The translations under genes were made by a program, and so were the position numbers. A stretch of DNA of 64,000 nucleotides from Aminivibrio pyruvatiphilus (GTDB lineage Bacteria; Synergistota; Synergistia; Synergistales; Aminobacteriaceae), in contig NZ_SORI01000015.1 of NCBI RefSeq assembly GCF_004366815.1, forward strand, positions 1,148 through 65,147. The letters run 5' to 3'. Positions 2,660 to 61,771 of this stretch are shown in pieces. The stretch's first letter is position 1. Every line of letters starts with the position of its first letter. Below the pieces are notes generated by a model, which was not told the DNA's origin, made no database searches, and saw only the letters and a list, made by a program, of their open reading frames with translations.

Positions 2660-3480
2660 GTATATTCAAATGGCGGTGGTGTCAAGGGTGTTGCCATCCT
2701 GAGCGAATGCGATGGATCTCGGACTTGAGGCACACCAGAGTCAAAATCGAGGTCCTTCCCCTCCGGGGATGCTCCCTCCGCTTCGCTTGGGTGCTGCGCG
2801 ATCGCGATCGCGGTGCTCAGGACGACAAAAAACAAGGTCTCAGGACGACAGAGGGTTGTCATCCTGAGACCGGGGGTATGGCCGAAGGATCTGGGGTGAG
2901 TTTCTGGACCTCGATTCTTTTGAGTCTGAATGCCGAAGTTTTGAAACATCCGGTCTGGACGCACTTCAAAAGCCAACCCGGATCCTTCGCTGCCGCTCAG
3001 GATGACAGAAAAAGGTACTCCTTGCTGTGGGATGCTCCCTCCGCTTCGCTTGGGTGCTGCGCGATCGCGATCCGGCGAAAAGCACACCGTCAGGACGACA
3101 GGCAAGGGCACTAAACCGAGATTCTTCGTCGCTGCACTCCTCAGAATGACAAAATTACGGCCCCGGCCACGGGCTCGGGGGCATACTGAGCGAAAGCCGT
3201 TGCGCAGTATCCCCGGAGGGGAAAGACCTTGGATTTGTCGTCCTGAACGGAGTGAAGGACCTGAATTCAGGTCCTCAGAATCAAAACCGAGATCCTTCCG
3301 GCGAAAAGCACGCCGTCAGGATGACAAACAAGGGGCAAACCCGTTCGCTCGGGACGACAAATAACTGCCGCTCGTTTGGGGCGACCGACAACTGCATTCG
3401 AGCGGGACGGAGGGTGTCATCCCGAGCGATCGCGATCGCGGAGCATCCCCGGAGGGGAGGGATCTCGCTCCTGGTATCTC
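2660..3480. repeat. Intergenic repeat array, same family
   Basis: Multiple copies of the GTCATCCTGAGC / GCTCAGGATGACA and CGAGATCCTTC / GAAGGATCTCG modules, plus the CCCTCCGGGGATGCTCC and GCGATCGC motifs. Confidence 0.8.
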
Positions 3481-3899: not shown

Positions 3900-4560
3900 G
3901 GAGTGTTATGTCATCCTGAGGCCTGCTGGAATGCTGTCATCCTGAGCGCAGCGTGACCTTGAAATCCACAAAAAACAACCCTGAGATCCTTCCCCTCCGG
4001 GGACGCGATCGGGCGGTGAAACAGCCCTCAGGATGACAGAACCCATACTTCCCGCTTCGCTCCGGATGCTCAGCGACCGCGATCGCTGCGCTCAGGATGA
4101 CAAACAAGGGCAATAGCGGCCCTTTCTTGACTCTGGTGTGTCATTCTGAGGGCGAAGCCCGATCGCGGAGCATCCCCGGAGGGGAAGAATCTGCACTTGA
4201 AGTGGCTCAGAATCAAAGGCAGGTCCCTCGCCCCCTCCGGGGACGAGATCGGGTGGTGAAACAGCCCTCAGGAAGACAGAACCCATACTTCCCGCTTCGC
4301 TCTGGGTGCTACGCGACCGCGGTCGCTGCGCTCAGGATGACAAACAAGGGCAATAGCGGCCCTTTCTTGACTCTGGTGTGTCATTCTGAGGGCGAAGCCC
4401 GATCGCGGAGCATCCCCGGAGGGGAAGAATCTGCACTTGAGGCAGCCCAGAATCAAAGGCAGGTCCCTTCTACACGGAGGGGAAGGGGTTCTTCATAAAG
4501 GGTTAGAGTCAAAACCGAGATCCTTCCGGCGAGAAGCCACGCCGTCAGGATGACAGCCGA
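3900..4560. repeat. Intergenic repeat array including a ~240-bp direct duplication (approx. 4010-4250 vs 4250-4490)
   Basis: Near-identical blocks ACAGCCCTCAGGA(T/A)GACAGAACCCATACTTCCCGCTTCGCTC...GGCAATAGCGGCCCTTTCTTGACTCTGGTGTGTCATTCTGAGGGCGAAGCCCGATCGCGGAGCATCCCCGGAGGGGAAGAATCTGCACTTGA occur twice. Confidence 0.8.
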
Positions 4561-6772: not shown

Positions 6773-7108
6773 AGCTGAAAACATTAGAAAATAAGAGCCT
6801 GCAGTCTGGAATCGCCAATATTTCCGCTCCATAGGGCGTAGTCAGTGTTGATGAAAAGCACCCCCAAGGGTAGAATACTCTAAACGGGTTATCCGGACGG
6901 AGAGAACAGAAACGAGAAGCAAGTCAGGAAAAACCGATAGAAGCAGAAACAAGTCCAAGACAGCCTGTACCATGTTCCACCAGCACCGGAAGCTACACTG
7001 AAAAGAACCGGAACAAAAGAAGCATGTAAGGGTATATGCAACAATATCAAGGAGCTGGTTGTTTGACCAAGTGTCAGCACCACCGCGCCGGATAGCCCGT
7101 AAACAATC

Positions 7109-7146
7109 GGAGGGGGGATTTTTCCCCCTCCTTTTTTTATTTTTTC
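7109..7146 (+). terminator. Rho-independent terminator ending a ~330-nt low-GC non-coding stretch
   Basis: GGAGGGGG-gattttt-CCCCCTCC perfect 8-bp stem followed by TTTTTTTATTTTTT. Confidence 0.6.
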
Positions 7147-7214
7147 ATCCATTCCGACAAAAAAGTGCTACTATTACTGTGGAACACAATATCCGTCAAG
7201 GGGAGGGAATGTGC

Positions 7215-7841
7215 ATGCGTTTTTGGGTTCTTTTCTGCCTGGTCTTTTCAATGCTTTTTACCGGGGTGTCCGGGCTAACTCCTGCACTCGGGGCTGACGA
7301 GGCCCTGCTTCGGGGAGTCGTGTACGACGAAGGGCAGAAGGGACTGCCCGGCGTCGCAGTTTCCGTGTGGGACGGCAAACTGTCCTACAAGGCCGTCACT
7401 GATTTCGACGGGAATTTCACCATCCGGGGGCTCATTCCCGGAAAGCCCTTCGCCATCCGGTGGACCCCCCGGGGCGGCAATTCCGTGAAAGTTGACGCCC
7501 TGACCTTTCCCGCCGAAGGAGACCTCCATCTGTCCATGGATTACGGTTCCGTGGGCAGGGGGAACGTCTACACGGTGCGCCTCCCGTCCAACCCCTCCAC
7601 GGGATACGGCTGGACGGCCCTTCACCAGGGGGTTGCCGTGGTGCGTCTGAAGGAAAATACCTTCCACGGGGAAGGGGATTCTTTCCCCGAGAGGGCAAAG
7701 ACCGGACGGCCAGGCACGGAGCTGTGGAAGTACGAGGGAATCGCGAAGGGAAATACGGCCCTCATTTTCGGCTACCAGCGCCCGTGGGAGAAGGGGACCA
7801 CTCCCGTGCGGTACCATGTTCTTTCCATGACGGTAAGATAG
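7215..7841 (+). CDS. Secreted chagasin-like cysteine-peptidase inhibitor (family I42) with an N-terminal CarboxypepD_reg-like domain
   Basis: Signal peptide MRFWVLFCLVFSMLFTGVSG. Chagasin signature NPSTGYGW (compare NPTTGY) inside YTVRLPSNPSTGYGWTALH...ELWKYEGIAKGNTALIFGYQRPWE. RBS GGGAGGGA upstream. Confidence 0.65.
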   Translation: MRFWVLFCLVFSMLFTGVSGLTPALGADEALLRGVVYDEGQKGLPGVAVSVWDGKLSYKAVTDFDGNFTIRGLIPGKPFAIRWTPRGGNSVKVDALTFPAEGDLHLSMDYGSVGRGNVYTVRLPSNPSTGYGWTALHQGVAVVRLKENTFHGEGDSFPERAKTGRPGTELWKYEGIAKGNTALIFGYQRPWEKGTTPVRYHVLSMTVR

Positions 7842-7862
7842 TTTGCTAAGAAAGGCATACCG

Positions 7863-7895
7863 GGCAGCCCTCCTTCCGAAGGCTGCCTTTTTTTA
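7863..7895 (+). terminator. Stem-loop plus T-tract after the inhibitor gene
   Basis: GGCAGCC-ctccttccgaa-GGCTGCC followed by TTTTTTTT. Confidence 0.5.
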
Positions 7896-7919
7896 TCCTG
7901 TGAAACCGGGAGGAAACCG

Positions 7920-9533
7920 ATGAAAATCCTTCGATCCGTTCTGCTTTTCTTCGCCGTTCTTTTTTCTGCCCTGATTACTTCATTTCCCCTGGAGGCTTTT
8001 TCCGTGTTTACCCGGCCTACCGGGGATGAATTCGCCCGGTTCCGGGAAAATCCGCCCTCAGGCCGGAATACCGCCGCCCATCCTCTGGGTTACCGGCCTT
8101 CGCCCCTGGACCTCTCCCATGTCCGGCCCTCCGCGTCTCTCAGGGGAGAACTGGACATCCTGGCGGCCGGGGCGGGAGGAGCCCCCGTCTTTCCCCGGAG
8201 CTTCGACCTGAGAGAACTGGGCGCCCTCACTCCGATGAGGGACCAGAATCCCTTCGGCACGTGCTGGGCCTTTGCTTCTCTGGCGTCCCTCGAGTCCACC
8301 TTCCTGAAGGCCGGGAAGGGGGCCTTCGACTTTTCCGAGTGGCACCTCGCGTATTTCGCCTACGTGGACGAGGATCCTTCTCTGCCCGCCTTCACGGCGA
8401 CCGCCCCGGGATTTGGCTCAGACCCCATTTTCGACCAGGGAGGGAGCGTATTCCAGGCGGCAGCCCTTCTTGCCCGGTGGACGGGGGCCGTGGCGGAATC
8501 GACCCGTCCGTACCAGAACACCAGCCCGTGGCCGGAATCCAGCAGGCCCCGCGCCTCCGACAGGGCGGCGAAGCGGCTGGAGAACGTCTTCCTGATCCAG
8601 GGTGAAGGATTACTGGACGAGGAGGCCGTCAAATACGCCCTGATGCGCTGGGGGGCGGTGAGTGTCCGGGTGGTCTGGGATGACGGCGCCTATTCCGAAG
8701 ATCACGCTTCCTTCTACAATGCTCCGGAATCAGGAGGCGGCCATATTGTGACCGTCGTCGGGTGGGACGACGATTTTCCGGCGGCGAATTTCGTTGCCGC
8801 TCCCGGCCGCGACGGGGCATGGATCGTTCGGAACAGCTGGGGTACCGGCTGGGGAGAAGAGGGGTATTTCTATCTTTCCTACGCCGAGCCGACCCTGGGC
8901 TATCCGGCGGTCTTTCTCGGCGGAGACGACACTGCATTCGACAGGATCTACCAGTACGACCCCCTCGGATGGGTGAATAATATAGGTGCCGGAGGCGAAA
9001 CGGCATGGTTCGCCAACATTTTTGAATCCCGGGGAAATGAAACCCTCGAGGCCGTATCCTTCTACGTTCCGGCACCCGACGCGTTTTTGCGGGTGGAGGT
9101 CCGGACGGGAGTGGCGCGGGACGACCCAGGGAGCGGCGAACTGGTCTCCGTGATGGAGGATATCCTGGGACCGTCGGGTTACCACACGGTGCGTCTTTCC
9201 AGGAGTGTTCCGCTGTCGGGAGGCCGGAGATTTTCCGTGGCGGTGAGGGTTACCACGCCGGGGTTTCTCAATCCCGTCGCGGTGGAATCCCGGGAAATCG
9301 GCTACAGCGACAAGGCGGACGCGGAACCGGGGCAGAGCTTCATCAGTTCGGACGGGGTATCCTGGAACGACCTGACGACCCTTCCCGGTCACGGAAATTC
9401 CAATGTCTGCCTGAAGGCCTTCACTTCCGTTTCCTCGTCCGGCGGCGGGTGCTCCTTTGGGGGAGAATCCGGAGTTTCCGGTCTTCTGCTCCTTCTGCCC
9501 CTGGTTCCGGTGCTCTGGAGGCGGAGGAAGTAA
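7920..9533 (+). CDS. Secreted papain-like cysteine peptidase (C1A family) with C-terminal extension and a GGGC-TM-RRRK sorting tag
   Basis: Catalytic Cys block DQNPFGTCWAFASLASLE. His block GGGHIVTVVGWDDD. Asn block NSWGTGWGEEGYFYLSY. Signal peptide present. Tail SSGGGCSFGG...LLLLLPLVPVLWRRRK. Confidence 0.85.
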   Translation: MKILRSVLLFFAVLFSALITSFPLEAFSVFTRPTGDEFARFRENPPSGRNTAAHPLGYRPSPLDLSHVRPSASLRGELDILAAGAGGAPVFPRSFDLRELGALTPMRDQNPFGTCWAFASLASLESTFLKAGKGAFDFSEWHLAYFAYVDEDPSLPAFTATAPGFGSDPIFDQGGSVFQAAALLARWTGAVAESTRPYQNTSPWPESSRPRASDRAAKRLENVFLIQGEGLLDEEAVKYALMRWGAVSVRVVWDDGAYSEDHASFYNAPESGGGHIVTVVGWDDDFPAANFVAAPGRDGAWIVRNSWGTGWGEEGYFYLSYAEPTLGYPAVFLGGDDTAFDRIYQYDPLGWVNNIGAGGETAWFANIFESRGNETLEAVSFYVPAPDAFLRVEVRTGVARDDPGSGELVSVMEDILGPSGYHTVRLSRSVPLSGGRRFSVAVRVTTPGFLNPVAVESREIGYSDKADAEPGQSFISSDGVSWNDLTTLPGHGNSNVCLKAFTSVSSSGGGCSFGGESGVSGLLLLLPLVPVLWRRRK

Positions 9534-9536
9534 AAC

Positions 9537-10060
9537 CGGGATCCCTCCCCTCCGGGGATGCTCCGCGATCGCATTCGCTCGGGATGACATCAGTTTCTGT
9601 CGTCCTGAGCAACGCGAAGGACCTCGATTTTGATTCTGCTCTCTCTAAAGGATACTTCGCGAGCGCATTTGTTTGTCATCCCGAACGACCGAAGGGCGGA
9701 GGGATCTCGGCTTTGGTTCCGAGTGCCGTCAACCCCGAGATCCCTCCCCCTCCGGGGATGCTCGGCATTGGTTTGTCATCCCGAACGACCGAAGGGCGGA
9801 GGGATCTCGGCTTTGGTTCCGAGTGCCGTCAACCCCGAGATCCCTCCCCTCCGGGGACGCGATCGGCCATGGTGCCGGCCTCGGGATGACAAGCCACTTC
9901 GCTCGGGATGACAGATCGGTCGGTGTCATTTTTTAGTTGTCATTCCGAGGAGCGGTTTTGGCGACGAGGAATCTCGCTTTGGATTCCAGGCGGACTCAAC
10001 CCGAGATCCCTCGGCCAAAAACCCGACCTCGGGATGACACCTTTTAGAGAATTCCATGCC
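9537..10060. repeat. Intergenic repeat array, same family
   Basis: Repeated blocks TTTGTCATCCCGAACGACCGAAGGGCGGAGGGATCTCGGCTTTGGTTCCGAGTGCCGTCAACCCCGAGATCCCTCCCC(C)TCCGGGG at ~9668-9760 and ~9772-9860. Confidence 0.8.
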
Positions 10061-10089
10061 GTTTTTATTGAAAAAGGAGAGACCCTTCA

Positions 10090-11757
10090 ATGAGACTGAC
10101 CCGTTCCATTCTTTTCGCTGCCGCATGCATTTTCCTGCTTTCTCCGGATCTGTCCGCTTCAGAAAAGTGGAGAACTGCCCCTCTCAACACCGAGTTTTTG
10201 GCTCACCGTTCAGGGATGAGCTTCAATCTCCATTCTATGGGTGGACCGGGCAGGATGAATACGGCCCATCGGCGGATGCTCGGAGAAGTACCTTCCCCCC
10301 TCGACCTTTCCCACGTGAGGGCTCCCGTGCATTTTTCCGGTATCCGGGGGGGAGGCGACGTGTCTGCCTCCGCCGTCTCCTTCCCTTCGTCCTTCAGCCT
10401 CCCCGCTGAGGGGCGGATGACGCCGATACGGGACCAGGCGCCCTACGGAACCTGCTGGGCTTTCGGCGCTTTTGCTTCCCTCGAGTCCTTTTTTGCCGGC
10501 CAGGGGGAGGAGAACCTTGATTTTTCGGAGTGGCATCTCGCCTATTTCGCCTATGTGGACGAAGGGGAGGGACTGCCGGGATTCACACAACACCTGGACC
10601 CCCAGTTCGGGGGAGACCCCGTTTTCGACCAGGGGGGAAACGCATGGAAGTCCGCTGCACTTCTCGCCCGCTGGACCGGCGCAGTGGCGGAAGCCGACCG
10701 GCCCTACCAGAACGTCACCCCCTGGCCGGAGGAAAGCAGGCCCCTCTCATCGGACAGAGCGGCGAAGAGGCTCGAGCACGTTCTTTACCTCGGCTCGGCG
10801 CCCGATATGGACAGCATAAAATACGCCCTCACCCACTACGGAGCCGTTCGCATCGGCGTCAGATGGCCTTACTGGGATTTTGAACACGAGGTGCTCAGCC
10901 CTTCCTTCGCCTTTTACAACTACGATCCTGTCGGTTTTCAGAGCGGAGGCCATGCGGTGGCCATTGCCGGTTGGGACGACGATTACCCCGCGGCCAATTT
11001 CGTTGGGGATCCTGGACGGAACGGCGCCTGGCTGGTGAAGAACAGCTGGGGGGAAGCATGGGGAAATGACGGGTATTTCTGGGTTTCCTACGCCGACCCC
11101 ACGCTGAACAGCCCGTCGGCGTACATCGGTGGAGAAGCGGACATCTTCGATTCCGTCTACCAGTACGACCCGCTTGGATGGGTGAACGATTACGGCGCCG
11201 GGAACGAGACTGCCTGGTTCGCCAACGTCTTTGCCGCTTCGGAAGGGCGCCCCGGGCTGGCCGAGGTACTTCGGGCAGTTTCCTTTTATTCGGCAGCCAC
11301 GGAGAGTTCGTATCGCATTGAGATCAGGCGGAACGTGTCCCGTTCCGCTCCTTTTGAAGGCGTCCCGGTGTCCGTGAAGGAGGGGGTTTTGGGACCGTCA
11401 GGCTATCATACGGTTCGGCTAGACAGGGAGGTCTTTCTCTCCCCGGGCAATCTTTTTTCCGTGGCGGTGAAGATCACCACTCCGGGCTACGCCTATCCCG
11501 TACCTCTCGAATCATCGGAAGCCGGCTACAGCGACAAGGCGGATGCTGGACCGGGGCAGAGCTTCATCAGCGCCGACGGGGTTTCCTGGAACGATTTGAC
11601 GGCTCTTCCCGGGCACGAAAAGTCCAACGTCTGCCTGAAGGCCTTCACTTCCTTCGCAGAAAATTCCGGGGGCGGCTGCTCCCTGGGAGGAGGCGGGTTC
11701 GCAGGTCTTCTGCTCCTTCTGCCCCTGGTGCCGGTGCTCAGGAAGCGGGGGAAATAA
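10090..11757 (+). CDS. Secreted papain-like cysteine peptidase (C1A family), paralog of 7920-9533, with the same C-terminal sorting tag
   Basis: DQAPYGTCWAFGAFASLES; GGHAVAIAGWDDD; NSWGEAWGNDGYFWVSY. Tail NSGGGCSLGGGGFAGLLLLLPLVPVLRKRGK. Confidence 0.85.
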   Translation: MRLTRSILFAAACIFLLSPDLSASEKWRTAPLNTEFLAHRSGMSFNLHSMGGPGRMNTAHRRMLGEVPSPLDLSHVRAPVHFSGIRGGGDVSASAVSFPSSFSLPAEGRMTPIRDQAPYGTCWAFGAFASLESFFAGQGEENLDFSEWHLAYFAYVDEGEGLPGFTQHLDPQFGGDPVFDQGGNAWKSAALLARWTGAVAEADRPYQNVTPWPEESRPLSSDRAAKRLEHVLYLGSAPDMDSIKYALTHYGAVRIGVRWPYWDFEHEVLSPSFAFYNYDPVGFQSGGHAVAIAGWDDDYPAANFVGDPGRNGAWLVKNSWGEAWGNDGYFWVSYADPTLNSPSAYIGGEADIFDSVYQYDPLGWVNDYGAGNETAWFANVFAASEGRPGLAEVLRAVSFYSAATESSYRIEIRRNVSRSAPFEGVPVSVKEGVLGPSGYHTVRLDREVFLSPGNLFSVAVKITTPGYAYPVPLESSEAGYSDKADAGPGQSFISADGVSWNDLTALPGHEKSNVCLKAFTSFAENSGGGCSLGGGGFAGLLLLLPLVPVLRKRGK

Positions 11758-11759
11758 AA

Positions 11760-12340
11760 TCGAGATCCCGAGCATTCGCTCGGGATGACAGTAGTTTCTG
11801 TCGTCCTGAGCAACGCGAAGGACCTCGATTTTGATTCTGCTCTCTCTAAAGAACGTTCCGCGATCTCATTTGTTTGTCATCCCGAACGACCGAAGGGCGG
11901 AGGGATCTGCCCTCTGGTTCTGAGTGACGTCAAACCCGAGATCCTCCCCCTCCGGGGATGCTGCGCGATCGCTGCGCTCAGGATGACAAACCGCTGCGCT
12001 CAGGATAACAAACAAGGCTGTCATCCTGAGGGTTGCTTCACCGCCCGAAGGATCTCGGTTTTGATTCTCGCTTTTTTGGTTTTACCGGATTCCAACCCGA
12101 GATCCTTCGCTGCGCTCAGGATGACAACAGTTTCTGTCGTCCTGAGCAACGCGAAGGACCTCGGTTTTGATTCTGCTCTCTCTCAAGGATGCTCCGCGAT
12201 CTCATTTGTTTGTCATCCCGAACGACCGAAGGGCGGAGGGATCTCGCCTTTGGTTCTCGGGGTTGGTTTTTTGTGGATTTTAAGGGCGAGATCCTTCGCT
12301 GCGCTCAGGATGACAAACCGCTGCGCTTAGGATGACAGCT
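11760..12340. repeat. Intergenic repeat array, same family
   Basis: AGTTTCTGTCGTCCTGAGCAACGCGAAGGACCTCG(A/G)TTTTGATTCTGCTCTCTC...ATTTGTTTGTCATCCCGAACGACCGAAGGGCGGAGGGATCT block occurs at ~11785-11905 and ~12125-12245. Terminal GCTCAGGATGACAA copies. Confidence 0.8.
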
Positions 12341-12342
12341 TT

Positions 12343-13752
12343 TTACTTCTTCCTTCTCATCAGCAGGCCGAGAGGAAGCAGGAGAAGTGCCAGGGCCGGA
12401 GCGGCTCCACCCGTCGCATTGCATCCGCCGCCGCCCCACTCCTCGGTCGGGGAGGCGCTTGCCATGGCGGCCTGGAGATTGAGGTATCCTCCCGTGGCGA
12501 CCTGGCCGGAGAGATGGGAAGTCTTCGTCACGTTCCCGAGGATTCTGCTCCTGATCTTCCATGCCGCTTCCGACGGATACCTGGCCGCCAAAAGGGCTGC
12601 CGCACCTGACACATGGGGTGTGGCCATGGAGGTGCCGTTCAGTTCCCTGTATCCTCCGTCGTGGTAGGTGCTCCAGATACCCACTCCGGGAGCCGCCAGG
12701 TGAACGTAGCGGGAGCCGTAATTATAGGCCCGGTAGCCGCTTGAATTGATCGCGGTGACGGTGATCATGTTACTTTCATCGAAAGAGGCGGGGTAAGGAC
12801 GTTCTCCGTCGATGGGGTTGTCTATGTTGTACCCATCGTTTCCGGCGGCGAAAACGAGAAGAATTCCCTGGTCCGCTGCGGCCCTGCAGGCAGTTCGCAG
12901 CGTCGTGACGGCGCTGCTGTAGGGCGAAACCCATCCAGCCAGGGAAAGGTTGGCGACACGGATGTTGCGGCCATTTCTCTTTTGCGCTGTTATATAATCC
13001 AGACCCTGGGCTACAGAGCCAAAGGTTCCGTCCCCATTCGAGTCAAGTACTTTGACCGCCAGGAGGCTCACTTGCCAGTTGACACCGGTGACACCCCTGC
13101 CATTATTGCCCACGGCGCCGATGGTCCCGGCGACATGAGTGCCGTGGCCGTTATCGTCCATGGGGTTGTTGTCATTGTTCCAAAAATCCCAGCCGTAGCG
13201 GCCGGAGAGGTCCCTTCCCATATTGGCCGCGAGGTCTTCGTGGTTGTAGTTGATCCCGCTGTCAAGGACGGCCACGTAGACGCTCCTGCTGCCCACGGAC
13301 CTGTCCCATGCCGCAGGGGCACGGATGGTGTTCAAACCCCATAGACTGTTGTTCGTATAGTATGGATCGTTTGGCGTCCGGGTGGCGTAAACCCGGTAAT
13401 TGGGCGACGCGGCGAGGACGGCAGGATTTCCCTCCAGGGCCTGCAGCAGTTCCTCCGTGGTCTTTTCCCCGCTTCTCAGAAGAACGATGTCCTTTCCCGT
13501 GACCTCGGCTATGGCGGGGGTGGAACTCACCGCCTGCGCCCCGGCGGAAGCCGCCACTTTTGCCGCCGAAGCGGAAAGGGCCTGGCGGAATGCGGCGGCG
13601 CTTACAGATTCGGCCGTAACCGGGGCCTTCAGGAGGACGAGGACTTCTCCTTCAGGGTAGTCATTATTTCCTTCCCGAAGCTCCGAGGCGCCCGCCACAG
13701 AGGCCAGTCCCAGAAGGACAACCAGGGCGACGATTCTTCCGACTCTCCTCAT
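12343..13752 (-). CDS. Secreted subtilisin-like serine peptidase (S8 family) with a GGGGC-TM-RRKK C-terminal sorting tag
   Basis: Catalytic triad blocks VAVLDSGINYNHEDL (Asp), HGTHVAGTIGA (His) and GTSMATPHVSGAAALL (Ser). Signal peptide MRRVGRIVALVVLLGLASVAGA. Start assigned at the Met following an RBS. Tail GGGGCNATGGAAPALALLLLPLGLLMRRKK. Confidence 0.85.
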   Translation of the reverse strand: MRRVGRIVALVVLLGLASVAGASELREGNNDYPEGEVLVLLKAPVTAESVSAAAFRQALSASAAKVAASAGAQAVSSTPAIAEVTGKDIVLLRSGEKTTEELLQALEGNPAVLAASPNYRVYATRTPNDPYYTNNSLWGLNTIRAPAAWDRSVGSRSVYVAVLDSGINYNHEDLAANMGRDLSGRYGWDFWNNDNNPMDDNGHGTHVAGTIGAVGNNGRGVTGVNWQVSLLAVKVLDSNGDGTFGSVAQGLDYITAQKRNGRNIRVANLSLAGWVSPYSSAVTTLRTACRAAADQGILLVFAAGNDGYNIDNPIDGERPYPASFDESNMITVTAINSSGYRAYNYGSRYVHLAAPGVGIWSTYHDGGYRELNGTSMATPHVSGAAALLAARYPSEAAWKIRSRILGNVTKTSHLSGQVATGGYLNLQAAMASASPTEEWGGGGCNATGGAAPALALLLLPLGLLMRRKK

Positions 13753-13789
13753 TATTTCCACCTTCTTTCTTTTGGGGCTCTGAATGCTC

Positions 13790-14213
13790 TCTAGTGCGAG
13801 ATTCCAAGGGCGAGATCCTTCCCTTCCGGGGATGCTCCTCCCTCCGCTTCGCTTGGGTGCTGCGCGAGCGCGATCGCATTCGCCCGGGATGATAAGGCGA
13901 GACGAGAACAAGCCAAAGCGAGAACAAGCCAAAGCGAGAACAAGCCAAAGCGAGAACAAGCCAAAGCGAGAACAAGCCAAAGCGAGATCCTTCGCTGCGC
14001 TCAGGATGACAATCCAAGGGCAAGATCCTTCCCCTCCGGGGATGCTTCGCGATCGCTTCGCTCAGGATGATAAACCGCTTCGCTCGGGATGATAAACAAG
14101 ACTGTCATCCTGAGGCCGGTTTTTTGGCCGAAGGATCTCGGGGTTGACTCTGAATGAAGTAAACCCGAGATCCTCCCCCTTCGGCGATGGCGCCTGCCTC
14201 GGGATGACAACTC
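13790..14213. repeat. Intergenic repeat array containing a 16-bp tandem repeat (GAGAACAAGCCAAAGC x5.5, 13905-13990) upstream of the S8 peptidase gene
   Basis: The 16-mer recurs head-to-tail. It is flanked by CGAGATCCTTCCCCTCCGGGGATGCT and GCTCAGGATGACAA family modules. Confidence 0.8.
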
Positions 14214-16163
14214 TTACCAGCCGCCGCCCCCGCCCCCGCCGCCTCCGCCTCCGGACGAGCCGCCGCCTCCGCTGCCGCTTGACGAACCGGGCGCCTGGGA
14301 GGCCGACGCTATGGTGGACGACATGGAGGACGCCAGCGAGGCCACTGCCCCTCCGGTGTAGAAGTTCGCCGCGGAGGGTCCCGAGTACCAGTCGGGCTGG
14401 TACTGCTGCTGTCTGAGGATATCCTCGAAGCGGTCCGCCCACGTTTCCGCCGTGTCCAGGGCGAAAGCGTAGGGAAGGAGCTTTTCAAAGACCTCCGGCG
14501 TTTCCTCCGGCGGGTTGAACATTTCCAGCCGGTGCCGCTCGGCGGTGCCCATGTACATGGCCAGGCCGTCTGCCTCGTTCAGCACGTCGTTTCCTTTCTC
14601 CGTCCTGACCGTCATGAGCTCCCGGAAGACCAGGATCATCAGTCCGGCCGCCAGGGGCGGCACGAGGAGCCATCCGCTCACCTCTGTGAGGGCGGCCAGG
14701 AAGAGAAGGGTGATGATCGTCGCGAATATGGCCGGGATGAAGGCCGTGATGATTTTCCGGAGAATGCGTCCCCTGCTCCTGATTCGTTTCCAGGCGAAGA
14801 TGTAGAGTGCTCCCGCTGCGAGGATTCCGCCCACGGCAAAGACGGAGAGCAGGGCGCCGTCCTCCTGGCCGCCCCAGGCGAGAAGGGCGTAGATCAGGAC
14901 GGGGATGAGAAACCCCGCCGCCCATATGAGGGTGTTTTTTGAGAAAAGTGACTTTGAGGCGTCCGACCAGGAGGCTTCCAGGGTTTCCTTCGCCTTGCCG
15001 AGGATTTCATGGTTGTCCTGGACGAGATGGAGCTCTTTTCTTCCCCGGGCAAAAAGGGCGTTGAAAAGCCGTGATTCCTCCTTCGAGGGAGTTGTCTTCC
15101 ATCCTTCCCTGGGAAGGGACACAAGGGCGTATCGTTTCCCGGCAAGCTTGGAAGCCAGGGACACCACGCCCCGCAGCAGGCTCTTTTTCCCTATTTCGCC
15201 CTGCCGCTCCATGGCCTCCTCGAGGGACATCTCCTCGATTTTGAGGAAGCCCCTGACCGCCAGGTTCAGGATTTCAGCGGTGAAGCAGGAGTTGTCCATG
15301 CCCATCCGCCTGACGAAGCGGAGGAAGCCCGGTCCGTTGCCTGCCGTGGGGCTGAAGAGGGGGATCACCGGTTTTCTCGGGGGATCCTTCCCCCAGCGGA
15401 TCCAGGCGAGGGCGTAGTACAGGAGCAGCAGAAGGGGAACGCTCCAGAAAAATACAGTGCCGAAGCGGTCGAAGAGGGCATAGCGGATGGGCGGTTTCGG
15501 CTTTTCCACGATGCCCTTGGGCCAGGTATAGGCCACGGTCAGGCCTTCACCGGGGGCAAGACGCCGGGTGGTCTCCACCGAGTTGTCGGGGAGGATGCGG
15601 GCATCCTGTCCACGGGCTCCCTGGGGGCCTGTATAGATATCGACGGACGAAAAGGGGACATTGCCCGGCAGCGAGGCGGAAAAGCGGGCTTTCAGTATGG
15701 GGAAGACCCAGTCGTTTCCGGTGACGTTCCAGTAGAGTTCGTCGTGTTCATCGAAAAAACCGAGCTGGCCGGTGGTCACGTAGACGAGAGTGTAAGTCTG
15801 CTCGCCGAGGGGGGCATTTCCTTTCGGGTCTCCGAGGTAAACCCGGACGCCGTTGGAGCGGGATTCGGTGCTGTAGGGAACCCGTTTTCCGTTGAGAAGG
15901 GCTTCTTCAACGGAAAATCCGACCCGGACGGTTTTGCCGGAACTGTCCGTGTAGGTGGTGGGAAAGTCCCGGAAAATGCCTTTCCGGATACGCACTCCTT
16001 CCACGCGGACGGTGATGTCTTCCCGTACTTCGAGGGAAGCGTCCCCGCGGACGGAAGCCGAAGAGGAAAAAAGGAGAATGGCCTCCTCAGCCCCGGAAGG
16101 CCGGGGGAGGAGCACCAGGGCCAGCGCGAGAAGCGCCGGCGCAAGTTTGCGGAACAATACCAT
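14214..16163 (-). CDS. DUF2207 domain-containing membrane protein
   Basis: 649 aa. Signal peptide, large N-terminal extracytoplasmic domain, central TM helices, and a Gly/Ser-rich tail (...[22 protein letters not shown]) typical of DUF2207. Adjacent to LemA, a conserved pairing. Confidence 0.7.
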
Positions 16164-16192: not shown

Positions 16193-16744
16193 CTAGAAAG
16201 AGACTTTCGGGGCGGTCTTCTCTTCCTCCGCAGCCTCGAAGTAATCGGCCTTTTCGTAGCCGAACTTCTGGGCGATCAGCACTGCCGGGAAGGTGGCGAT
16301 GGAGATGTTGTAGTCCCTCGCGGCGCCGTTGTAGTACCGCCTGGACATCTGGATGTCGTTCTCCAGGGAGGCGAGCTGCTCCTGGAGCTGCATGAAATTC
16401 GTGTTGGCCTTCAGTTCGGGGTAGTTTTCCGCCACCGCGAAAAGGGTCTTCAGGGCGCCGGAAAGCATGTTCTCCGACTCGACCCGTTCGCCCACGGACT
16501 GGGCGTGGCTGATGGCCGACCGTGCCTCGGTGACCTTTTCGAAGACTTCCTTCTCGTGGGAGGCGTAGCCTTTCACGGCCTCCACGAGGTTGGGAACCAG
16601 GTCAAAACGCCTCTTGAGCTGGACGTCGATGCCGCTCCACGCTTCGTTCTTGAGGTTCTGCATCCTGATGAGCCTGTTGTAGACAGAGACGGCCCAAAAA
16701 ACAACGCCAGCGATAAGTGCGAGAAGAACCAGCAACACGATCAT
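16193..16744 (-). CDS. lemA: LemA family protein
   Basis: Single N-terminal TM helix ([25 protein letters not shown]) followed by the LemA core. Start set at the Met preceded by RBS GGGAGGGG; the upstream in-frame Met at 16795 is an alternative. Confidence 0.8.
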
Positions 16745-16879
16745 GAAAAAACCCCTCCCAGACGGAAAGATGGAATTAAAAAACCTTCCGATCATTCTAC
16801 ACCAAAGGGCAGGCCGACCGGAAGGTATTTTCTTTGTTTTTTTGCCTCATGTCGTGGGGAAAGAAGGGGAGTTCTTGGT

Positions 16880-17400
16880 GAGGTAATCCTGAGGGCGTTT
16901 TCGGATTGTCATCCTGAGGAGCGTAGCGAGGAAGGATCTCGGGATTGACTCTGAATGGAGTAAAAATCGAGATCCTTCCCCTCCGGGGATGCTTCACGAT
17001 CGGCCATGGAGCCGGCCTCGGATGACAAACAGGGGCGAGATCCTTCGCTGCGCTCAGGATGACAAAGCAAAAGCATGATGGCAAACTGCTGCGTTCAGGA
17101 TGACAAACAGGGGCGAGATCCTTCGCTGCGCTCAGGATGACAAAGCAAAGAGCATGATGGCAAACTGCTGCGTTCAGGATGACAAACAGGGGCGAGATCC
17201 TTCGCTGCGCTCAGGATGACAGAGCCGCTGCGCTCAGGATGACAAAGCAAAAGCATGATGGCAAACTGCTGCGTTCAGGATGACAAACAGGAGCGAGATC
17301 CTTCGCTGCGCTCAGGATGACAGAGCCGCTGCGCTCAGGATGACAGAGCCGCTGCGCTCAGGATGACAGGCTATTCGGGACGACAAGGTCCTTTGAAGGT
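16880..17400. repeat. Repeat array with ~83-bp tandem units (3+ copies) and reiterated 23-bp GATGACAGAGCCGCTGCGCTCAG sub-units
   Basis: CAAACAGGGGCGAGATCCTTCGCTGCGCTCAGGATGACAAAGCAAAAGCATGATGGCAAACTGCTGCGTTCAGGATGA repeats head-to-tail across 17027-17300. Confidence 0.85.
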
Positions 17401-17939
17401 CAGAGATACCTCCGGATTTCGTCCAGAGACTTCCGTTTCTTCGGCGGGAGGTAGTCCTCGTCGGGCGGGTAGCCCAGGGACAGCATGAGGTCGATCTTCG
17501 CCTGCCGGGGCAGGGCCAGCTCCCGCTTCACGGCCTTTTCGTCCAGCCAGCCGAACATGCAGGTTCCCAGGCCCAGTTCCGCCGCCTGGAGGGACAGGTG
17601 CTCGCAGGCTATGGCCACGTCCATGACGCTGAACTGGATGCCCCGGAAAAAGCCCCCCATGGACGCGGCGTACCCGGACCGTTCGGTGAGGACGGTGATG
17701 AGTACCGGGGCATTGGCCGCGAAGGAATTCATGGAGTAGATTCCGCTGAAAGCCGCCTTTGCCAGGGAAGCCACCTTTTCAGGGGTGTTGGCCACCAGGA
17801 AGGTCCACGGCTGGGAGTTGCAGGCCGACGGGGCGAGCCTGGCGGCTTCGAGACATTTGTCGATGACCGCCCCGGCCACGTGAAAGGACGAGTATTTCCT
17901 GAGGCTGTATCGTTTTCTCACCAGGTCGACGAAATCCAT
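17400..17939 (-). CDS. Nitroreductase family protein
   Basis: MDFVDLVRKRYSLRKY...PSACNSQPWTFLVANTPEKVASLAKA; nitroreductase fold motifs. Confidence 0.8.
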   Translation of the reverse strand: MDFVDLVRKRYSLRKYSSFHVAGAVIDKCLEAARLAPSACNSQPWTFLVANTPEKVASLAKAAFSGIYSMNSFAANAPVLITVLTERSGYAASMGGFFRGIQFSVMDVAIACEHLSLQAAELGLGTCMFGWLDEKAVKRELALPRQAKIDLMLSLGYPPDEDYLPPKKRKSLDEIRRYL

Positions 17940-17956: not shown

Positions 17957-18658
17957 TCAGATGGTGGGGGCGTTGTAGACCAGGTAGCCGGCCGCAGCGA
18001 GAAGCAGAAGGCCGCTGATCTTTCCGAGCCAGGCTGTGGCTTTTCCGCCGCCGGAGAAGATACGGGAAAAGGCGTCCGTGGCGCTTCCGGCGGCGATGAT
18101 CACCGTGCAGTGGCCGGCGCCGTAGGCCGCCACGAGCAGCAGCGCCCGGACGATGTCGGTGGCGGCGGTCTGCATGGCGAGGAAGATCACCGGGGCAGAG
18201 TAGGCGAAGCTGCACGGCCCGAGGGCCAGGCCGGAAAGGGTCCCGAGGGCGAGGGCACCCCGGTAGCCCGTGTGTTTCGTCGTGGGGCCGGAGCCGCCCC
18301 GGAACCACGGCATGTTGATCAGCCCCAGAAGGTGCAGGCCGAAGAGGGCGAAGACGGCAGCCACGATGTAGTTGGTGTACCGGTCGATGCCGCCGAGGAA
18401 GACCCCGGCCGACGTGAGGAGCCCCCCGAGGAAGGCGAGATTGACGAAGACGCCGAGGGAGAAAACCACGGAAATGCGGAAGGCCGACCAGAAGGTGGGG
18501 TTGTCCGAATCGCTCACGTAGCCCACCACCAGGGGTATGGTGGCGATGCTGCAGGGACTGAGGGTCATGCCCAGTATTCCCCAGGCGTACAGGGCGGCGT
18601 ATGCCGCCGCCCCGTCGCCGTGGAACACGCCGTAAAGAAAGTCATACACGCCGCCCAT
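17957..18658 (-). CDS. ccdA: Cytochrome c biogenesis protein CcdA / DsbD-family thiol-disulfide transporter (transmembrane domain)
   Basis: Multi-TM protein with two conserved Cys (LSPCSIATIPLVVGY and LGPCSFAYSAPVIFL) typical of the DsbD_2/CcdA family. Confidence 0.8.
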   Translation of the reverse strand: MGGVYDFLYGVFHGDGAAAYAALYAWGILGMTLSPCSIATIPLVVGYVSDSDNPTFWSAFRISVVFSLGVFVNLAFLGGLLTSAGVFLGGIDRYTNYIVAAVFALFGLHLLGLINMPWFRGGSGPTTKHTGYRGALALGTLSGLALGPCSFAYSAPVIFLAMQTAATDIVRALLLVAAYGAGHCTVIIAAGSATDAFSRIFSGGGKATAWLGKISGLLLLAAAGYLVYNAPTI

Positions 18659-18667: not shown

Positions 18668-19042
18668 TCAGTTCCCTGTCTCCATGTCGTAGCCCAGGCC
18701 TTCCCAGTGCTTCTCCAGGGCGTCGAGGGGCATGTACCCCACCCGCTTGTCGAGCATCTTTCCCGTCTCGTCGAGGAACACGAGGGTTGGGACGTAGCGC
18801 ACCTGGTAGAGCCTGGCCACATCGGGGAAGTCCCGGACGTTCACAATCTGCACTTCGAACTTGTCCCCGTGCTTCTCCGAAAACTGGTCCAAAACTTTGG
18901 ACATCTCAACGCAGGCCGGTCAGCCCGGAGACATGAGCTCCACGAGCTTGGGCCGGGCGGTTTCGGCCGCGTATCCGGAGTAGGGAAGCAGGAGAACTAC
19001 AGCGAGAGCGGCAAAGATAAGAAAGAGCCGGTTAATGGTCAT
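18668..19042 (-). CDS. Thioredoxin-like protein with an in-frame TGA at the first active-site position (U-P-A-C), i.e. a candidate selenoprotein; signal/anchor peptide at the N-terminus
   Basis: Minus-strand translation from the ATG at 19042 (RBS GGGGGGAUG): MTINRLFLIFAALAVVLLLPYSGYAAETARPKLVELMSPG-[TGA 18922..18920]-PACVEMSKVLDQFSEKHGDKFEVQIVNVRDFPDVARLYQVRYVPTLVFLDETGKMLDKRVGYMPLDALEKHWEGLGYDMETGN. The TGA sits exactly where the CxxC first Cys is expected. A hairpin GUCCAAAGUUUUGGAC lies ~20 nt downstream of the UGA. An ORF finder only calls the 78-aa tail. Confidence 0.55.
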
Positions 19043-19191
19043 TTTTTCATCCCCCCTGGGTGTATTTCGGTATATGAAATTGCAGCATTATTGTAGCCGT
19101 TGACCGAGGGGCCGGTCAACGCGAAAAGGGCGGATTTTCCCTTTCCGGGAAATTTTCGGTAGAATGGCGGAGCGGAAGGGGAGTGAACTGA

Positions 19192-35036: not shown

Positions 35037-36221
35037 TTATTTTCCGAACCAGAATTCCGTGCGGGTGCAGAACTTCACGAGCATGAGCATCACCGGCACC
35101 TCGATGAGCACGCCCACCACCGTTGCAAGGGCGGCGCCTGAAGAAAGGCCGAACAGCATGGCGGCAGTGGCGATGGCCACCTCGAAATGATTCGAGGCGC
35201 CGATCATGGCGGAAGGAGCGGCGTCCTGGTAGGAGAGACCCAGTTTCTTCGACATCCAGTACCCCAGCCCGAAGATCAGCACTGTCTGGAGGAAGAGGGG
35301 GACGGCGATCCAGAGGATCGTCAGCGGATTGGCGACGATGACCTCCCCTTTGAAGGAGAAGAGCAGCACGAGGGTGATGAGAAGGGCCATGATGGTGACC
35401 GGCGTCAGGAAGTGGAGAAACTTCTCCCGGAACCAGGTCTCTCCTTTTGCCGTGAGGATCATCTTTCTGGAAATATAGCCCGCCGCCAGGGGCAGGGCCA
35501 CGTAGACCGCGATGGAGAGGGCGAGGGCCTGCCACGGTACCGGAATGCGTCCCACGCCGAGAAGGAACCCTCCCAGGGGGCCGTAGAGAAAGAGCATGGT
35601 GAGGGAATTGATGGCCACCATCACGAGGGTGTGTCCGTCGTTTCCCCGTGCGAGGTACCCCCATACCAGCACCATGGCGGTGCAGGGGGCTATGCCCAGG
35701 AGAATGCACCCTGCGAGGTAACTCCGCCACAGGGGGACGGAGAGCATCCGGACGCCGTTTTCAAGGACCACTGTGCCGAGGCCGTACGTCGCCCCCGGCT
35801 CGAGGTCGAGGCCGAAGGGAAGCCGCACCAGGTCCACGGCGTCGGGACCGATGAAGTGAAGGAAGACCTTACCGAGGAAGAATACGGCGATGGCGTACAT
35901 GGTGAAGGGCTTCACCGCCCAGTTGATGAAGAGGGTCAGCCCGACCGGCCTGGTGCTCTTTCCCGCCTTCACCACCTCGGCGAAATCGATCTTCACCATG
36001 ATGGGGTACATCATGAAGAAGAGGCATATGGCGATGGGAATCGAGATCACCGGCGCCCCTCCCACGGAAAGGGCCATGCCGTCGAGGGTCTTCGCGAAGT
36101 CCGGGGCTGCCCTGCCGAGCCCGACCCCTGCGAGGATGCTCAATATGACCCAGACGGTGAGATATTTTTCAAAGAAACCGAGTCCTTTTGCTTCTTTTGT
36201 GATGCAGGCCTTGCCCTCCAT
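35037..36221 (-). CDS. acr3: ACR3-family arsenite efflux transporter
   Basis: [20 protein letters not shown]-terminus. Ten-TM BART-superfamily topology. Sits in the ars operon. Confidence 0.85.
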
Positions 36222-36224
36222 TTT

Positions 36225-37490
36225 CTAGTTCTCCTCCCGGGGAATCGTTTTTTTCATGACGGTGCTGCCCTGGGGGCACACCCTGTCCAGCGCGGAGCTC
36301 TGCATCAGAGGAGCGGGGATATCCTCCCTCCGGGCAGCGGTGAATCCGGCACGACCGAAGAACCGCTCCGCAGTTTCGGTAAGAAGATACACCGTCCTGA
36401 CTCCCTGCTCCCGGCCCCGGTCTATGATGGCATAGGTCATCCGCTCGCCGAAGCCCTTCTTCCTGTCCTTTAGCCGCACCGCGAGGGAACGGAGCAGCCC
36501 CGCGTCCCCCTGGATCTCCATGCCCGCGACCGCGGCAATGCCGTTTTGCTCCAGGACGAGGAAGTTCTCCGGCGATGCCGCCACGCCGAGGGGTGAGAGC
36601 CCGTTCTCCTCCAGGAGGGCCGCAATGGCGGGAACATCTTCAGGGACCGCAGTCCGGATGAAAAGATCCCTGCCTTCGATAGGTTCCACAGACGGCTTTT
36701 TCGCGAAGATCAGGGCGCTGGCCAGGGCGCCGCCGATTTCCCTCCGTTCTTCTTCGTCCAGGTCCGGAAAGGCGAATGCCGCCAGGGCGTCGGGAATGTC
36801 GAACACCTTTGTCCGGCGGATCTCCACCTCTTCGAAGCCCGCTTCCTTCAGAAGGCCGGCGTACTCCGTCTCCTGCAGCGCCCCGGAGATGCAGCCCGAC
36901 CAGGCGGCGAGATTTTTTACGGCCCGGTCCGTCACCGGGCGGACAAACACAGTATCGGAGACGCAGAACCGGCCGCCCGGGCGGAGCACCCGGAAGGCTT
37001 CCTTCAGCACCTTTTCCTTGTCGGGTGAAAGATTGATGACGCAGTTGGAGATGATCACGTCCACGGTGCCGCTCTCGAGGGGCATGTCCTCTATGTACCC
37101 CTTCACGAGGGTTACGTTGTCCAGCCCGTTGAGGTTTTTCGCCGCTGTCTCGAGCATCTCGTCGGTCATGTCCAGCCCGATGACTTTTCCGAAGGGTCCC
37201 GTGGCCTCCGAAGCCAGGAACAGGTCGAGTCCCGCGCCGCTTCCGAGGTCGAGGACGGTCTCCCCGGGATGTATCCGTGCTTCGGTCAGGGGGTTGCCGC
37301 AGCCAAAGGACTGCCCGGCCATGCCCTCCGGGGTTTTACCGAGTGTGGCGCCGTCGTAGTTGCCTTTCGTCATGTTCAGAATATCGGTTCGCCCCGCCGC
37401 CCCGCAGCACCCTCCCGAACCGCAGCAGCTGGAAGTGCTTTTGATCGCCCTGGCGTACCGTTCTTTCACGTAGTCCCTGATGTCGTCCAT
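36225..37490 (-). CDS. arsM: Arsenite S-adenosylmethionine methyltransferase (ArsM) fused to a C-terminal GNAT (ArsN-like) acetyltransferase domain
   Basis: Cys-rich N-terminus (SSCCGSGGCCG). SAM motif VLDLGSGAGLD. VDVIISNCVINLSPDKEKVLKEAFRVLRPGGRF. The last ~170 aa form a GNAT-like domain. Confidence 0.8.
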   Translation of the reverse strand: MDDIRDYVKERYARAIKSTSSCCGSGGCCGAAGRTDILNMTKGNYDGATLGKTPEGMAGQSFGCGNPLTEARIHPGETVLDLGSGAGLDLFLASEATGPFGKVIGLDMTDEMLETAAKNLNGLDNVTLVKGYIEDMPLESGTVDVIISNCVINLSPDKEKVLKEAFRVLRPGGRFCVSDTVFVRPVTDRAVKNLAAWSGCISGALQETEYAGLLKEAGFEEVEIRRTKVFDIPDALAAFAFPDLDEEERREIGGALASALIFAKKPSVEPIEGRDLFIRTAVPEDVPAIAALLEENGLSPLGVAASPENFLVLEQNGIAAVAGMEIQGDAGLLRSLAVRLKDRKKGFGERMTYAIIDRGREQGVRTVYLLTETAERFFGRAGFTAARREDIPAPLMQSSALDRVCPQGSTVMKKTIPREEN

Positions 37491-37497
37491 AGCCCGG

Positions 37498-37953
37498 CTA
37501 CCTCCTTTCCCCGTCCGCGAGGTTTTCCAGAAAGCGGGGAAGATCCTTGATGAATGCCCGTATCTCGTCCCTGACCCGCCGGTAGCAGTCCAGCTTTTCT
37601 TCCTCAGTTTTCTTTCCCCGGGCCAGCTTCGGGGGGTCGTCGAACCCCCGATGGACGACCCTGGATCCTCCGGGGAAGAAGGGGCACCGTTCGTCCGCAT
37701 CGCCGCACACGGTGATCACGAAGTCGAAGGGAATGTCCAGGAGTTCCGTGACGTTTTTTGACCGGTGTCCGGAAATGTCCGCCCCGGCCTCTTTCATCAC
37801 CGCCACGGCGTTAGGGTTCAGACCGTGAGTTTCGATTCCGGCAGACCAGACATCAATGATGTCCCCGTGGAAATGACGGGTCCAGCCTTCCGCCATCTGG
37901 CTTCGGCATGAGTTTCCCGTGCAGAGGAAAAGCACCTTCGTCCTGTCCTTCAT
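37498..37953 (-). CDS. arsC: Arsenate reductase, LMW-PTP type (thioredoxin-coupled ArsC)
   Basis: VLFLCTGNSCRSQMAEGW P-loop. Conserved downstream Cys (VITVCGDADERCP). Confidence 0.85.
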   Translation of the reverse strand: MKDRTKVLFLCTGNSCRSQMAEGWTRHFHGDIIDVWSAGIETHGLNPNAVAVMKEAGADISGHRSKNVTELLDIPFDFVITVCGDADERCPFFPGGSRVVHRGFDDPPKLARGKKTEEEKLDCYRRVRDEIRAFIKDLPRFLENLADGERR

Positions 37954-38312: not shown

Positions 38313-38335
38313 GACACTCTCCTTCCTATGATTCG

Positions 38336-61766: not shown

Positions 61767-61771
61767 CCGCC

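Follow-up and report, generated by a model that had tools for sequence, protein, structure and literature searches.

A probable thioredoxin-fold selenoprotein encoded beside a CcdA-like membrane protein in Aminivibrio pyruvatiphilus and related Synergistota

The DNA analyzed here is a stretch of 64,000 nucleotides from contig NZ_SORI01000015.1 of Aminivibrio pyruvatiphilus (Synergistota; Aminobacteriaceae), which is referred to as the window. On its minus strand, at positions 19042-18668, it contains a thioredoxin-like gene followed by genes for a CcdA-like membrane protein and a protein of the nitroreductase family. The thioredoxin-like gene is very probably a genuine selenoprotein gene, which would encode 124 residues with a U-P-A-C active site. 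Its single frame opens with an ATG at 19042, closes with a TGA terminator at 18670-18668 and comprises 124 sense codons, if the only internal stop, a TGA at 18922-18920 (codon 41), is counted as the codon for selenocysteine (Sec). The sequence around codon 41 reads ...KLVELMSPG-[TGA]-PACVEMSKVL..., which gives the motif LMSPG-U-PAC and places the proposed Sec at the N-terminal, nucleophilic position of a CxxC motif. The entire read-through product is MTINRLFLIFAALAVVLLLPYSGYAAETARPKLVELMSPG-[TGA]-PACVEMSKVLDQF...VRYVPTLVFLDETGK...GN. The assignment of 18668-19042 as one complete gene is supported by the frame itself, by Pfam, by an alignment of orthologues and by the thioredoxin fold of a closely related protein (P0001, see below).

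A Shine-Dalgarno-like AGGGGGG run at 19051-19057 can be seen directly in the sequence, 8 nt 5′ of the ATG. Further upstream on the same strand, at 19090-19119, lies a candidate for a sigma-70-like promoter (TTGACC-18 nt-TACAAT). This candidate is a consensus match only (10 of 12 positions), and chance alone would yield 0.6 sites of such quality in the region scanned. A first-pass annotation of this DNA, made from the sequence alone, had described the frame as open up to the ATG at 19042 save for one TGA and had noted a good ribosome-binding site in front of it. All of its coordinates were found to be right when the frame was re-read, and the ribosome-binding site corresponds to the AGGGGGG run.

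Mechanical calling of open reading frames (ORFs) yields only the 78-codon tail of the gene (18668-18904). The same fragment is produced by standard gene callers, and it is deposited for A. pyruvatiphilus as a 'thioredoxin family protein' (TDY57998.1/WP_133958146.1). RefSeq, UniProt and JGI hold this 78-residue tail as well as stray fragments of 40 or 112 aa which derive from the same gene. This is in agreement with the first-pass annotation, which had found the 78-aa C-terminal fragment to be the only called ORF and had expected a standard caller to mis-annotate the gene. At the loci L001-L006, the N-terminal part (9863-9985) is called as a separate gene of 40 aa, and the JGI entry P0049, a 'hypothetical protein' of 112 aa, begins at an upstream GTG and ends with ...LMSPG. 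One real gene has in this way given rise to two spurious database entries. The terminator of the gene (18668-18670) is also a TGA, located 84 codons past the proposed Sec codon and 9 nt before the ATG (18658) of the ccdA-like gene. The same mRNA would give TGA two meanings, and a hairpin is present only behind the first of the two. As expected for the standard genetic code, TGA serves as an ordinary stop in the window: of 34 genes with Pfam support, nine end with it, this gene among them. A scan for other TGA-bridged ORFs across the window returned only adjacent genes in the same frame and no second selenoprotein candidate.

A protein search using the U-to-C translation of the read-through frame as query yielded full-length matches of 126-131 residues, which carry ...LMSPGCPAC..., and additionally dozens of 'proteins' of 74-82 residues, all of which begin at a Met directly past the active site. 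When one genome per GTDB species was scanned, the gene was found in 14 species, all of them represented by metagenome-assembled genomes (MAGs) of Synergistaceae or Aminobacteriaceae. Thirteen of these contain a TGA at exactly codon 41, the remaining one a TGT. Including a metagenome scan and contig look-ups, 20 distinct TGA-form sequences, originating from genomes and metagenomes of Aminobacteriaceae/Synergistaceae, and ten distinct Cys-form sequences with TGC or TGT at this position were obtained. All 340 named profile matches belong to Synergistaceae or Fretibacterium only.

The Cys forms share the gene order of the locus (a divergent M20 peptidase, the thioredoxin-like gene, the DsbD_TM gene, in some cases the nitroreductase gene, LemA and DUF2207) and are true orthologues. 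C41-P-A-C44 is invariant in the alignment of orthologues, and in the full-length Cys forms the first Cys of CPAC stands where the TGA forms have their TGA codon. The first-pass annotation had placed the TGA at the first Cys of the active site, and the alignment with Cys homologues, in which no misalignment was seen, is in line with this placement. Coding conservation in the same frame extends to both sides of the TGA. Upstream of it, the residues L-8, E-6, L-5, S-3 and P-2 are conserved among the TGA forms and their codons vary synonymously (three different codons for Leu-8, three for Ser-3 and two for Pro-2), with similar variation being found downstream. No second disabling mutation is present in any of the aligned orthologue sequences. 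The combination of conserved residues and synonymous codon variation on both flanks therefore indicates that translation crosses the TGA in frame.

Downstream of the TGA, at 18887-18902 of the minus strand, lies a hairpin with a 6-bp stem (G(U/G)CCAA / UUGG(A/C)C) and an AGUU tetraloop, which is conserved in the TGA forms and is the proposed apical hairpin belonging to a selenocysteine insertion sequence (SECIS). In A. pyruvatiphilus it reads GUCCAA-AGUU-UUGGAC, starts 17 nt past the A of the UGA and covers positions 21-36, with the U of the UGA as position 1. Its loop begins 23 nt past the UGA, and the G-U of the loop is located at positions 28-29. In the bacterial SECIS consensus, as worked out in connection with bSECISearch, the loop is 16-37 nt away from the UGA and has a G in its first two positions. 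The geometry of the present hairpin (23 nt, loop G-U) fits this consensus, and a conserved stem-loop with a G(U) loop at 16-37 nt was also found with our own implementation of these criteria. Like the SECIS elements of E. coli fdhF and of Moorella, the hairpin lies in the coding sequence directly 3′ of the UGA, has a G-U in its apical loop and keeps a loop distance within the range of 16-37 nt. Unlike in fdhF, where the loop G-U is found at positions 23-24, it is located at 28-29 here, and unlike in both known elements the stem is a perfect, short one of 6 bp, capped by a tetraloop and without a bulged U.

Of the 1859 TGA trinucleotides of the window, 2.3% have, 16-37 nt downstream, a perfectly paired hairpin with 6 bp or more and a G early in its loop; the share is 0.9% if a GU in the loop is required. 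In one sequence only, the hairpin is mildly unusual and weak evidence when taken alone, and the case therefore rests on the comparison with related sequences. For 14 TGA-form sequences, RNAalifold returned the hairpin as the sole consensus helix, with all six pairs being formed in each sequence. Pair 22-35 is U-A in eight and G-C in six of these sequences and never mismatched; its exchange couples a Ser-to-Ala with an Asp-to-Ala substitution in the protein. Together with 5 nt on its 5′ side, the hairpin forms a block (18887-18907, minus strand; GAG AUG KCC AAA GUU UUG GMC) which is devoid of synonymous variation in the TGA forms. The codons of this 21-nt block are invariant in the 14 sequences; elsewhere in the gene, conserved Val, Leu, Lys and Glu residues are encoded by two to four synonyms. 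The frozen codons are rare ones in this genome (TTG accounts for 2.3% of Leu, GTT for 12% of Val and AAA for 36% of Lys codons), and the probability of AAA GTT TTG, given the residues KVL, is about 0.001. The helix is intact in all 20 TGA forms vs three of the ten Cys forms, a difference with a one-sided Fisher value of 5.9e-5 that ignores phylogeny. The diverged Cys forms encode K-V-L with GTG/GTC and CTG/CTT, have Ala paired with Glu, and form two to five of the six helix pairs. This behavior supports the hairpin as a probable bacterial SECIS, with the binding of SelB itself being putative. The first-pass annotation had pointed to a hairpin about 20 nt 3′ of the UGA; the hairpin found 17 nt past the TGA is conserved and covarying, as expected of a bacterial SECIS.

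The encoded protein matches several thioredoxin families of Pfam above their cut-offs, namely Thioredoxin_2 (PF13098) as the best one (2.1e-11, 44.6 bits vs a cut-off of 27), Thioredoxin (1e-9) and Thioredoxin_3. A comparison of the family profile with the PDB yielded thioredoxins at about 1e-15, with CPAC aligned on CGPC and VPT on the cis-Pro motif IPT; among the solved chains, 2L57, an uncharacterised thioredoxin-like protein, comes closest in this profile comparison. The structure was assessed using an AlphaFold (AF2) model of P0001, a Cys orthologue with 77% identity. Residues 31-120 of this model have a predicted local distance difference test score (pLDDT) above 90 and follow the order beta-alpha-beta-alpha-beta-beta-alpha. 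Helix 1 (H43-59) begins with the residue directly after Cys42 of P0001, the counterpart of U41. The top matches in Foldseek are all thioredoxins, among them the periplasmic TrxP of B. fragilis. The hallmarks of thioredoxin-fold oxidoreductases, i.e., the fold itself, a CxxC motif at the N-terminal end of helix 1, and a loop with a cis-Pro, are all present, and the model is that of a minimal thioredoxin fold of the classical type, with a predicted domain of about 98 residues.

In front of this domain, the first 25 residues (MTINRLFLIFAALAVVLLLPYSGYA / AE; 18968-19042, minus strand) resemble a Sec-type (export) signal peptide, with a positive n-region, a hydrophobic core and a c-region of small residues, and contain no lipobox Cys; the cleavage site was inferred from the translation. 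The N-terminal region is conserved in all orthologues, and in the P0001 model it has a low pLDDT and no secondary structure. Both parts of the first-pass description as a thioredoxin-like protein with a signal or anchor peptide agree with this prediction. The TlpA/ResA type, which had been suggested there as the set for comparison, turned out to be unsuitable: the ResA model of NCBIfam (NF002854) reaches only 20.9 bits vs a cut-off of 170 and covers only residues 49-114, and the structure model shows the minimal classical-type fold without the extra insertion. None of the curated NCBIfam selenoprotein models (e.g., SaoT NF040730, VPGUxxT NF041383, HUIPC NF047660) matched at E <= 0.001 except PDO_seleno_TRX (TIGR02187), whose 21.9 bits compare with a cut-off of 185. 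The NCBIfam thioredoxin equivalog gave 42 bits vs a cut-off of 96.8.

Because the TGA is conserved, both of its flanks are under constraint, Cys orthologues exist and the hairpin is conserved along with the TGA, the case for a selenoprotein is strong. Several observations nevertheless weigh against it. The 64-kb window and all flanks that were fetched contain neither selA, selB or selD nor a gene for tRNA-Sec. ARAGORN found no tRNA at all in the window and 24 loci, no SelA, SelB or SelD is among the roughly 45 window genes annotated with Pfam/NCBIfam, and the short Logan contigs (SRR7082119) which were matched by the outermost proteins of the window carry no sel genes. The covariation of the hairpin concerns a single pair with two states, maybe arising from one or two events, and the other five of the six stem pairs are invariant. 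The folding energy of single sequences was not unusual in comparison to shuffled controls (z = -0.2 and +0.4), and Rfam, which was searched at its gathering threshold for the whole window and at a permissive E-value for the locus, only returned meaningless matches to long non-coding RNAs and offers no bacterial SECIS model suited to the element. In addition, the proposed export of the thioredoxin domain, the electron relay via CcdA and the substrates are deduced solely from knowledge of the respective families.

Support for Sec machinery is confined to the level of the lineage. Synergistetes have been described as a selenoprotein-rich phylum, with Sec being used in 13 of 14 genomes (PMC5029168). 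The Synergistota also appear as selenoprotein-rich in other surveys (PMC9312934; PMC13188914), and 13 selenoprotein genes were reported for an Aminobacterium sp. (PMC12013277). Aminobacterium is the type genus of the Aminobacteriaceae, the family to which Aminivibrio belongs. In the literature, no paper was found which links Aminivibrio to selenocysteine.

The public annotation amounts to a truncated or split gene, in which UGA-41 acts as a stop and a pseudogene or degenerate thioredoxin yields a peptide of 40 residues and/or a fragment of 78 residues starting from the ATG at 18904. This is how RefSeq/JGI and gene callers present the locus (WP_133958146.1 with 78 aa, the upstream call of 40 aa and P0049), and an ATG (Met47) is indeed located just past the UGA. 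However, the same TGA occurs in 20 distinct sequences from species which are only 60-70% identical, and purifying selection with synonymous variation is seen on both of its flanks, which contain no other disabling change. Furthermore, neither the signal peptide nor strand beta-1 nor any part of the active site would be included in a fragment of 78 aa, and Met47 is an internal residue which the full-length Cys forms also share without exception. It is hence extremely unlikely that the gene is truncated. A mere sequencing or assembly error, by which a TGC or TGT would appear as TGA, has nothing in its favor except that a single base separates these codons. This explanation is refuted by the replication of the TGA across assemblies: the identical codon is present in isolate, MAG and metagenome assemblies obtained independently, and for just one cluster, that of the near-identical fragment P0010, 119 contigs were counted. 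The probability of such an error is negligible.

Translation through the UGA could also result in an amino acid other than Sec. A tRNA which resembles tRNA-Sec and is charged with Cys has been reported for some anaerobes and would be a possible route for recoding UGA-41 to Cys; hairpin-dependent or near-cognate read-through with Cys or Trp are the variants to be considered here. The Cys orthologues imply that Cys is functionally acceptable at position 41, and such recoding would be compatible with Sec machinery not being found within the window or the fetched flanks. Yet, a plain TGC or TGT codon would suffice for Cys without any hairpin, but most species of the clade keep both TGA and hairpin, and the hairpin decays once TGA has changed to TGY. 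As the Synergistota are moreover documented users of Sec, an insertion of Cys or Trp appears very unlikely.

If UGA-41 is read as Sec, as we prefer, the following mechanism can be envisaged. The hairpin behind UGA-41 (stem G-U-C-C-A-A, loop A-G-U-U, 17 nt past the codon) would act as a bacterial SECIS and recruit SelB-GTP-Sec-tRNASec to the ribosome, by which UGA-41 would be decoded as selenocysteine. The second TGA, 84 codons further on and without a hairpin, would terminate the protein. Synergistota are diderm, and the signal peptide would send the thioredoxin-fold domain of ~98 residues to the periplasm. There, the U-P-A-C motif might cycle between a selenol/thiol and a selenenylsulfide state, with the selenolate being the nucleophile that attacks substrate disulfides. 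Disulfides or other oxidised sulfur species in the periplasm may be the targets. The co-transcribed CcdA-like protein could then re-reduce the selenenylsulfide formed with Cys44, using electrons from cytoplasmic thioredoxin which would be passed on via two membrane-embedded Cys. By analogy with known systems, SelB-dependent Sec insertion, export, this direction of electron flow and this kind of substrate are thus what may be inferred for the protein.

The proposed partner is a DsbD_TM protein of 233 aa encoded at 17957-18658 (minus strand), the ATG of which follows 9 nt past the stop of the thioredoxin-like gene. It matches PF02683 with 34.1 bits vs a cut-off of 27.1 and is named CcdA in RefSeq. 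Its DsbD_TM domain contains two conserved, membrane-embedded Cys, as Cys36 and Cys149 are invariant in 13 of 13 orthologues. The surrounding motifs LSPCS and LGPCS are found in 12 of these; the Fretibacterium locus L031 has LSPCG and LGPCN instead. The DsbD_TM gene adjoins the thioredoxin-like gene in every locus which extends that far, and the pair also exists in the distant Cys-form relative from Fretibacterium. We propose that the CcdA-like protein may serve as the transmembrane reductant conduit for the selenoprotein.

Sec and Cys appear to have been exchanged repeatedly at position 41. In a neighbor-joining tree, the outgroups and the basal clade have Cys, and L021, L022 and L026, the Cys forms in which the hairpin is intact, are the nearest neighbors of TGA forms. 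The TGC/TGT alleles of L021, L022/L023 and L026 (gene at approximately 4001-4381 or 3001-3381) are almost identical to the neighboring TGA alleles and contain a 'fossil SECIS', and the decay of the hairpin is graded, with one broken pair in L027 and two in L024. Judged from their sequences, L021, L022 and L026 look like recent single-base reversions from Sec to Cys. The simplest history would be one gain of Sec from Cys, followed by several independent reversions to Cys and a subsequent erosion of the hairpin. PMC1794560 describes such a dynamic of gain and reversion as general among bacterial selenoproteins. The locus is a clean example of this exchange, as closely related TGA, TGC and TGT alleles share the same synteny and have a SECIS that is intact, partly decayed or gone. 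It is tempting to go further and to postulate an uncatalogued, Synergistota-specific subfamily, in which an exported Sec-thioredoxin is the dedicated periplasmic acceptor of CcdA and which had a single Cys-to-Sec origin and at least four or five independent reversions that left decaying fossil hairpins behind. This idea is tentative, and we are slightly more inclined to doubt it than to accept it. If it is true, the subfamily would be a compact natural series for the rate at which a SECIS erodes after the loss of its UGA, and would also show which advantage Sec has over Cys in a reductant outside the cytoplasm.

UxxC selenoproteins with a thioredoxin fold are among the commonest predicted bacterial selenoproteins, and the protein described here is of this known kind. 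All public sources annotate the gene as truncated. A family named 'Thiol:disulfide interchange protein' (domain PF13098, motif UxxC; representative WP_011366075.1) was defined by Zhang et al. 2006 (PMC1794560) and is also listed in PMC9312934 and PMC13188914. With PF13098 and U-P-A-C, the gene combines the domain and the UxxC motif by which this family is recognized (PMC9312934), and it falls into the family by this domain-plus-motif rule. Both have PF13098 as best match and Sec at the nucleophilic first position of UxxC, both were recognized from Cys homologues and a SECIS hairpin, and both occur in selenoprotein-rich anaerobes. In contrast, the described members of the family are from Deltaproteobacteria, whereas the named matches of the present clade are from Aminobacteriaceae/Synergistaceae only. 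The minimal domain of ~98 residues, the CPAC-type motif and the fixed position beside a CcdA-like gene are further differences.

The selenoprotein thioredoxins (PF00085, UxxC; e.g., the thioredoxin of Treponema denticola) share the fold and the replacement of the first Cys of CxxC by Sec with the present protein, whose closest solved structures are classical thioredoxins. For the thioredoxin of T. denticola, Sec gives a catalytic advantage according to Kim et al. 2015, as cited in PMC9312934. Classical thioredoxins are, however, cytoplasmic and reduced by thioredoxin reductase, and they possess a (C/U)GPC motif as well as an additional beta-alpha unit at the N-terminus, whereas the present protein has a signal peptide and UPAC, lacks the N-terminal unit and is paired with a membrane-bound CcdA-like protein. 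In being a probably exported reductant with a thioredoxin fold encoded beside a DsbD_TM conduit, it resembles the thioredoxins fed by CcdA/DsbD, such as TrxP of B. fragilis, ResA/StoA of B. subtilis and TlpA. All characterised examples of these use Cys, however, and proteins of the ResA/TlpA type contain an extra insertion, while the present protein does not match the ResA model. The recognition of this gene corrects a systematic mis-annotation, which affects Aminivibrio as well as a dozen or more related species, and adds a member to the selenoproteome of the Synergistota which lies beyond any curated hidden Markov model. The understanding of how selenoproteins work is unchanged by it, and the finding would not surprise a specialist.

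The third gene of the locus (17400-17939, minus strand) starts 17 nt past the ccdA-like gene and encodes a flavin mononucleotide-binding protein of the nitroreductase family with 179 aa and no signal peptide. It is present in the window and at the loci L001-7, L010-16, L021-23, L026 and L028, and absent from L009, L018-20, L024-25 and L027; four TGA-form and two Cys-form species lack it. As it is cleanly missing in loci of both forms, the nitroreductase was rejected as an obligatory partner and is better seen as an accessory gene. The operon with CcdA and a nitroreductase which the first-pass annotation had proposed holds for the CcdA part, this gene being always adjacent, but not for the nitroreductase, which is an occasional neighbor. 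No cytochrome c maturation genes are located nearby.

Further downstream, genes for LemA (16193-16795) and a DUF2207 protein (14214-16163), both on the minus strand, follow the thioredoxin-ccdA pair in nearly every locus. In the distant Fretibacterium relative (L031, 1470-4473), the DUF2207 gene is located directly upstream of the pair formed by the Cys-form thioredoxin and the DsbD_TM protein. This hints at a functional link between the LemA/DUF2207 membrane proteins and the reductant system. The spacer between the nitroreductase gene and lemA (16796-17399) comprises ~600 bp without a recognisable gene, as an ORF at 16797-17084 has no Pfam match, and its length differs among strains from roughly 380 to 730 bp. 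On the MAG contig L001 (11508-12415), genes for an IclR regulator and a urocanase (hut) replace the downstream genes, which marks a rearrangement breakpoint.

A set of secreted proteases is encoded at 7059-13980. It includes two C1 peptidases of the papain family, each with a lectin-like domain at the C-terminus (7920-9533 and 10090-11757), which are preceded by a protein with a chagasin-family I42 inhibitor domain (7059-7841), and a subtilase of family S8 that carries a Synerg-CTERM sorting signal (12343-13980). A link to the thioredoxin-ccdA pair through exported cysteine proteases, which would need reducing surroundings, is conceivable, yet speculative. A cluster of the arsenic type (35037-39848) contains an SBF/Acr3-like transporter (35037-36221), a fusion of an S-adenosylmethionine-dependent methyltransferase with a GNAT domain of 491 aa (36225-37700), an ArsR-type regulator (37950-38543) and a weakly ArsP_1-like permease (38787-39848). 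In some anaerobes, the enzymes that methylate arsenite are selenoproteins, but an in-frame TGA was not noticed in this cluster. Finally, a cluster for tricarboxylate utilisation (50962-63256) comprises an RraA-like aldolase, TctB/TctA, a protein of the phosphoenolpyruvate mutase/isocitrate lyase family, an aconitase, a TRAP-type transporter (NMT1_3 and DctM) and the acyl carrier protein, beta and alpha subunits of citrate lyase.

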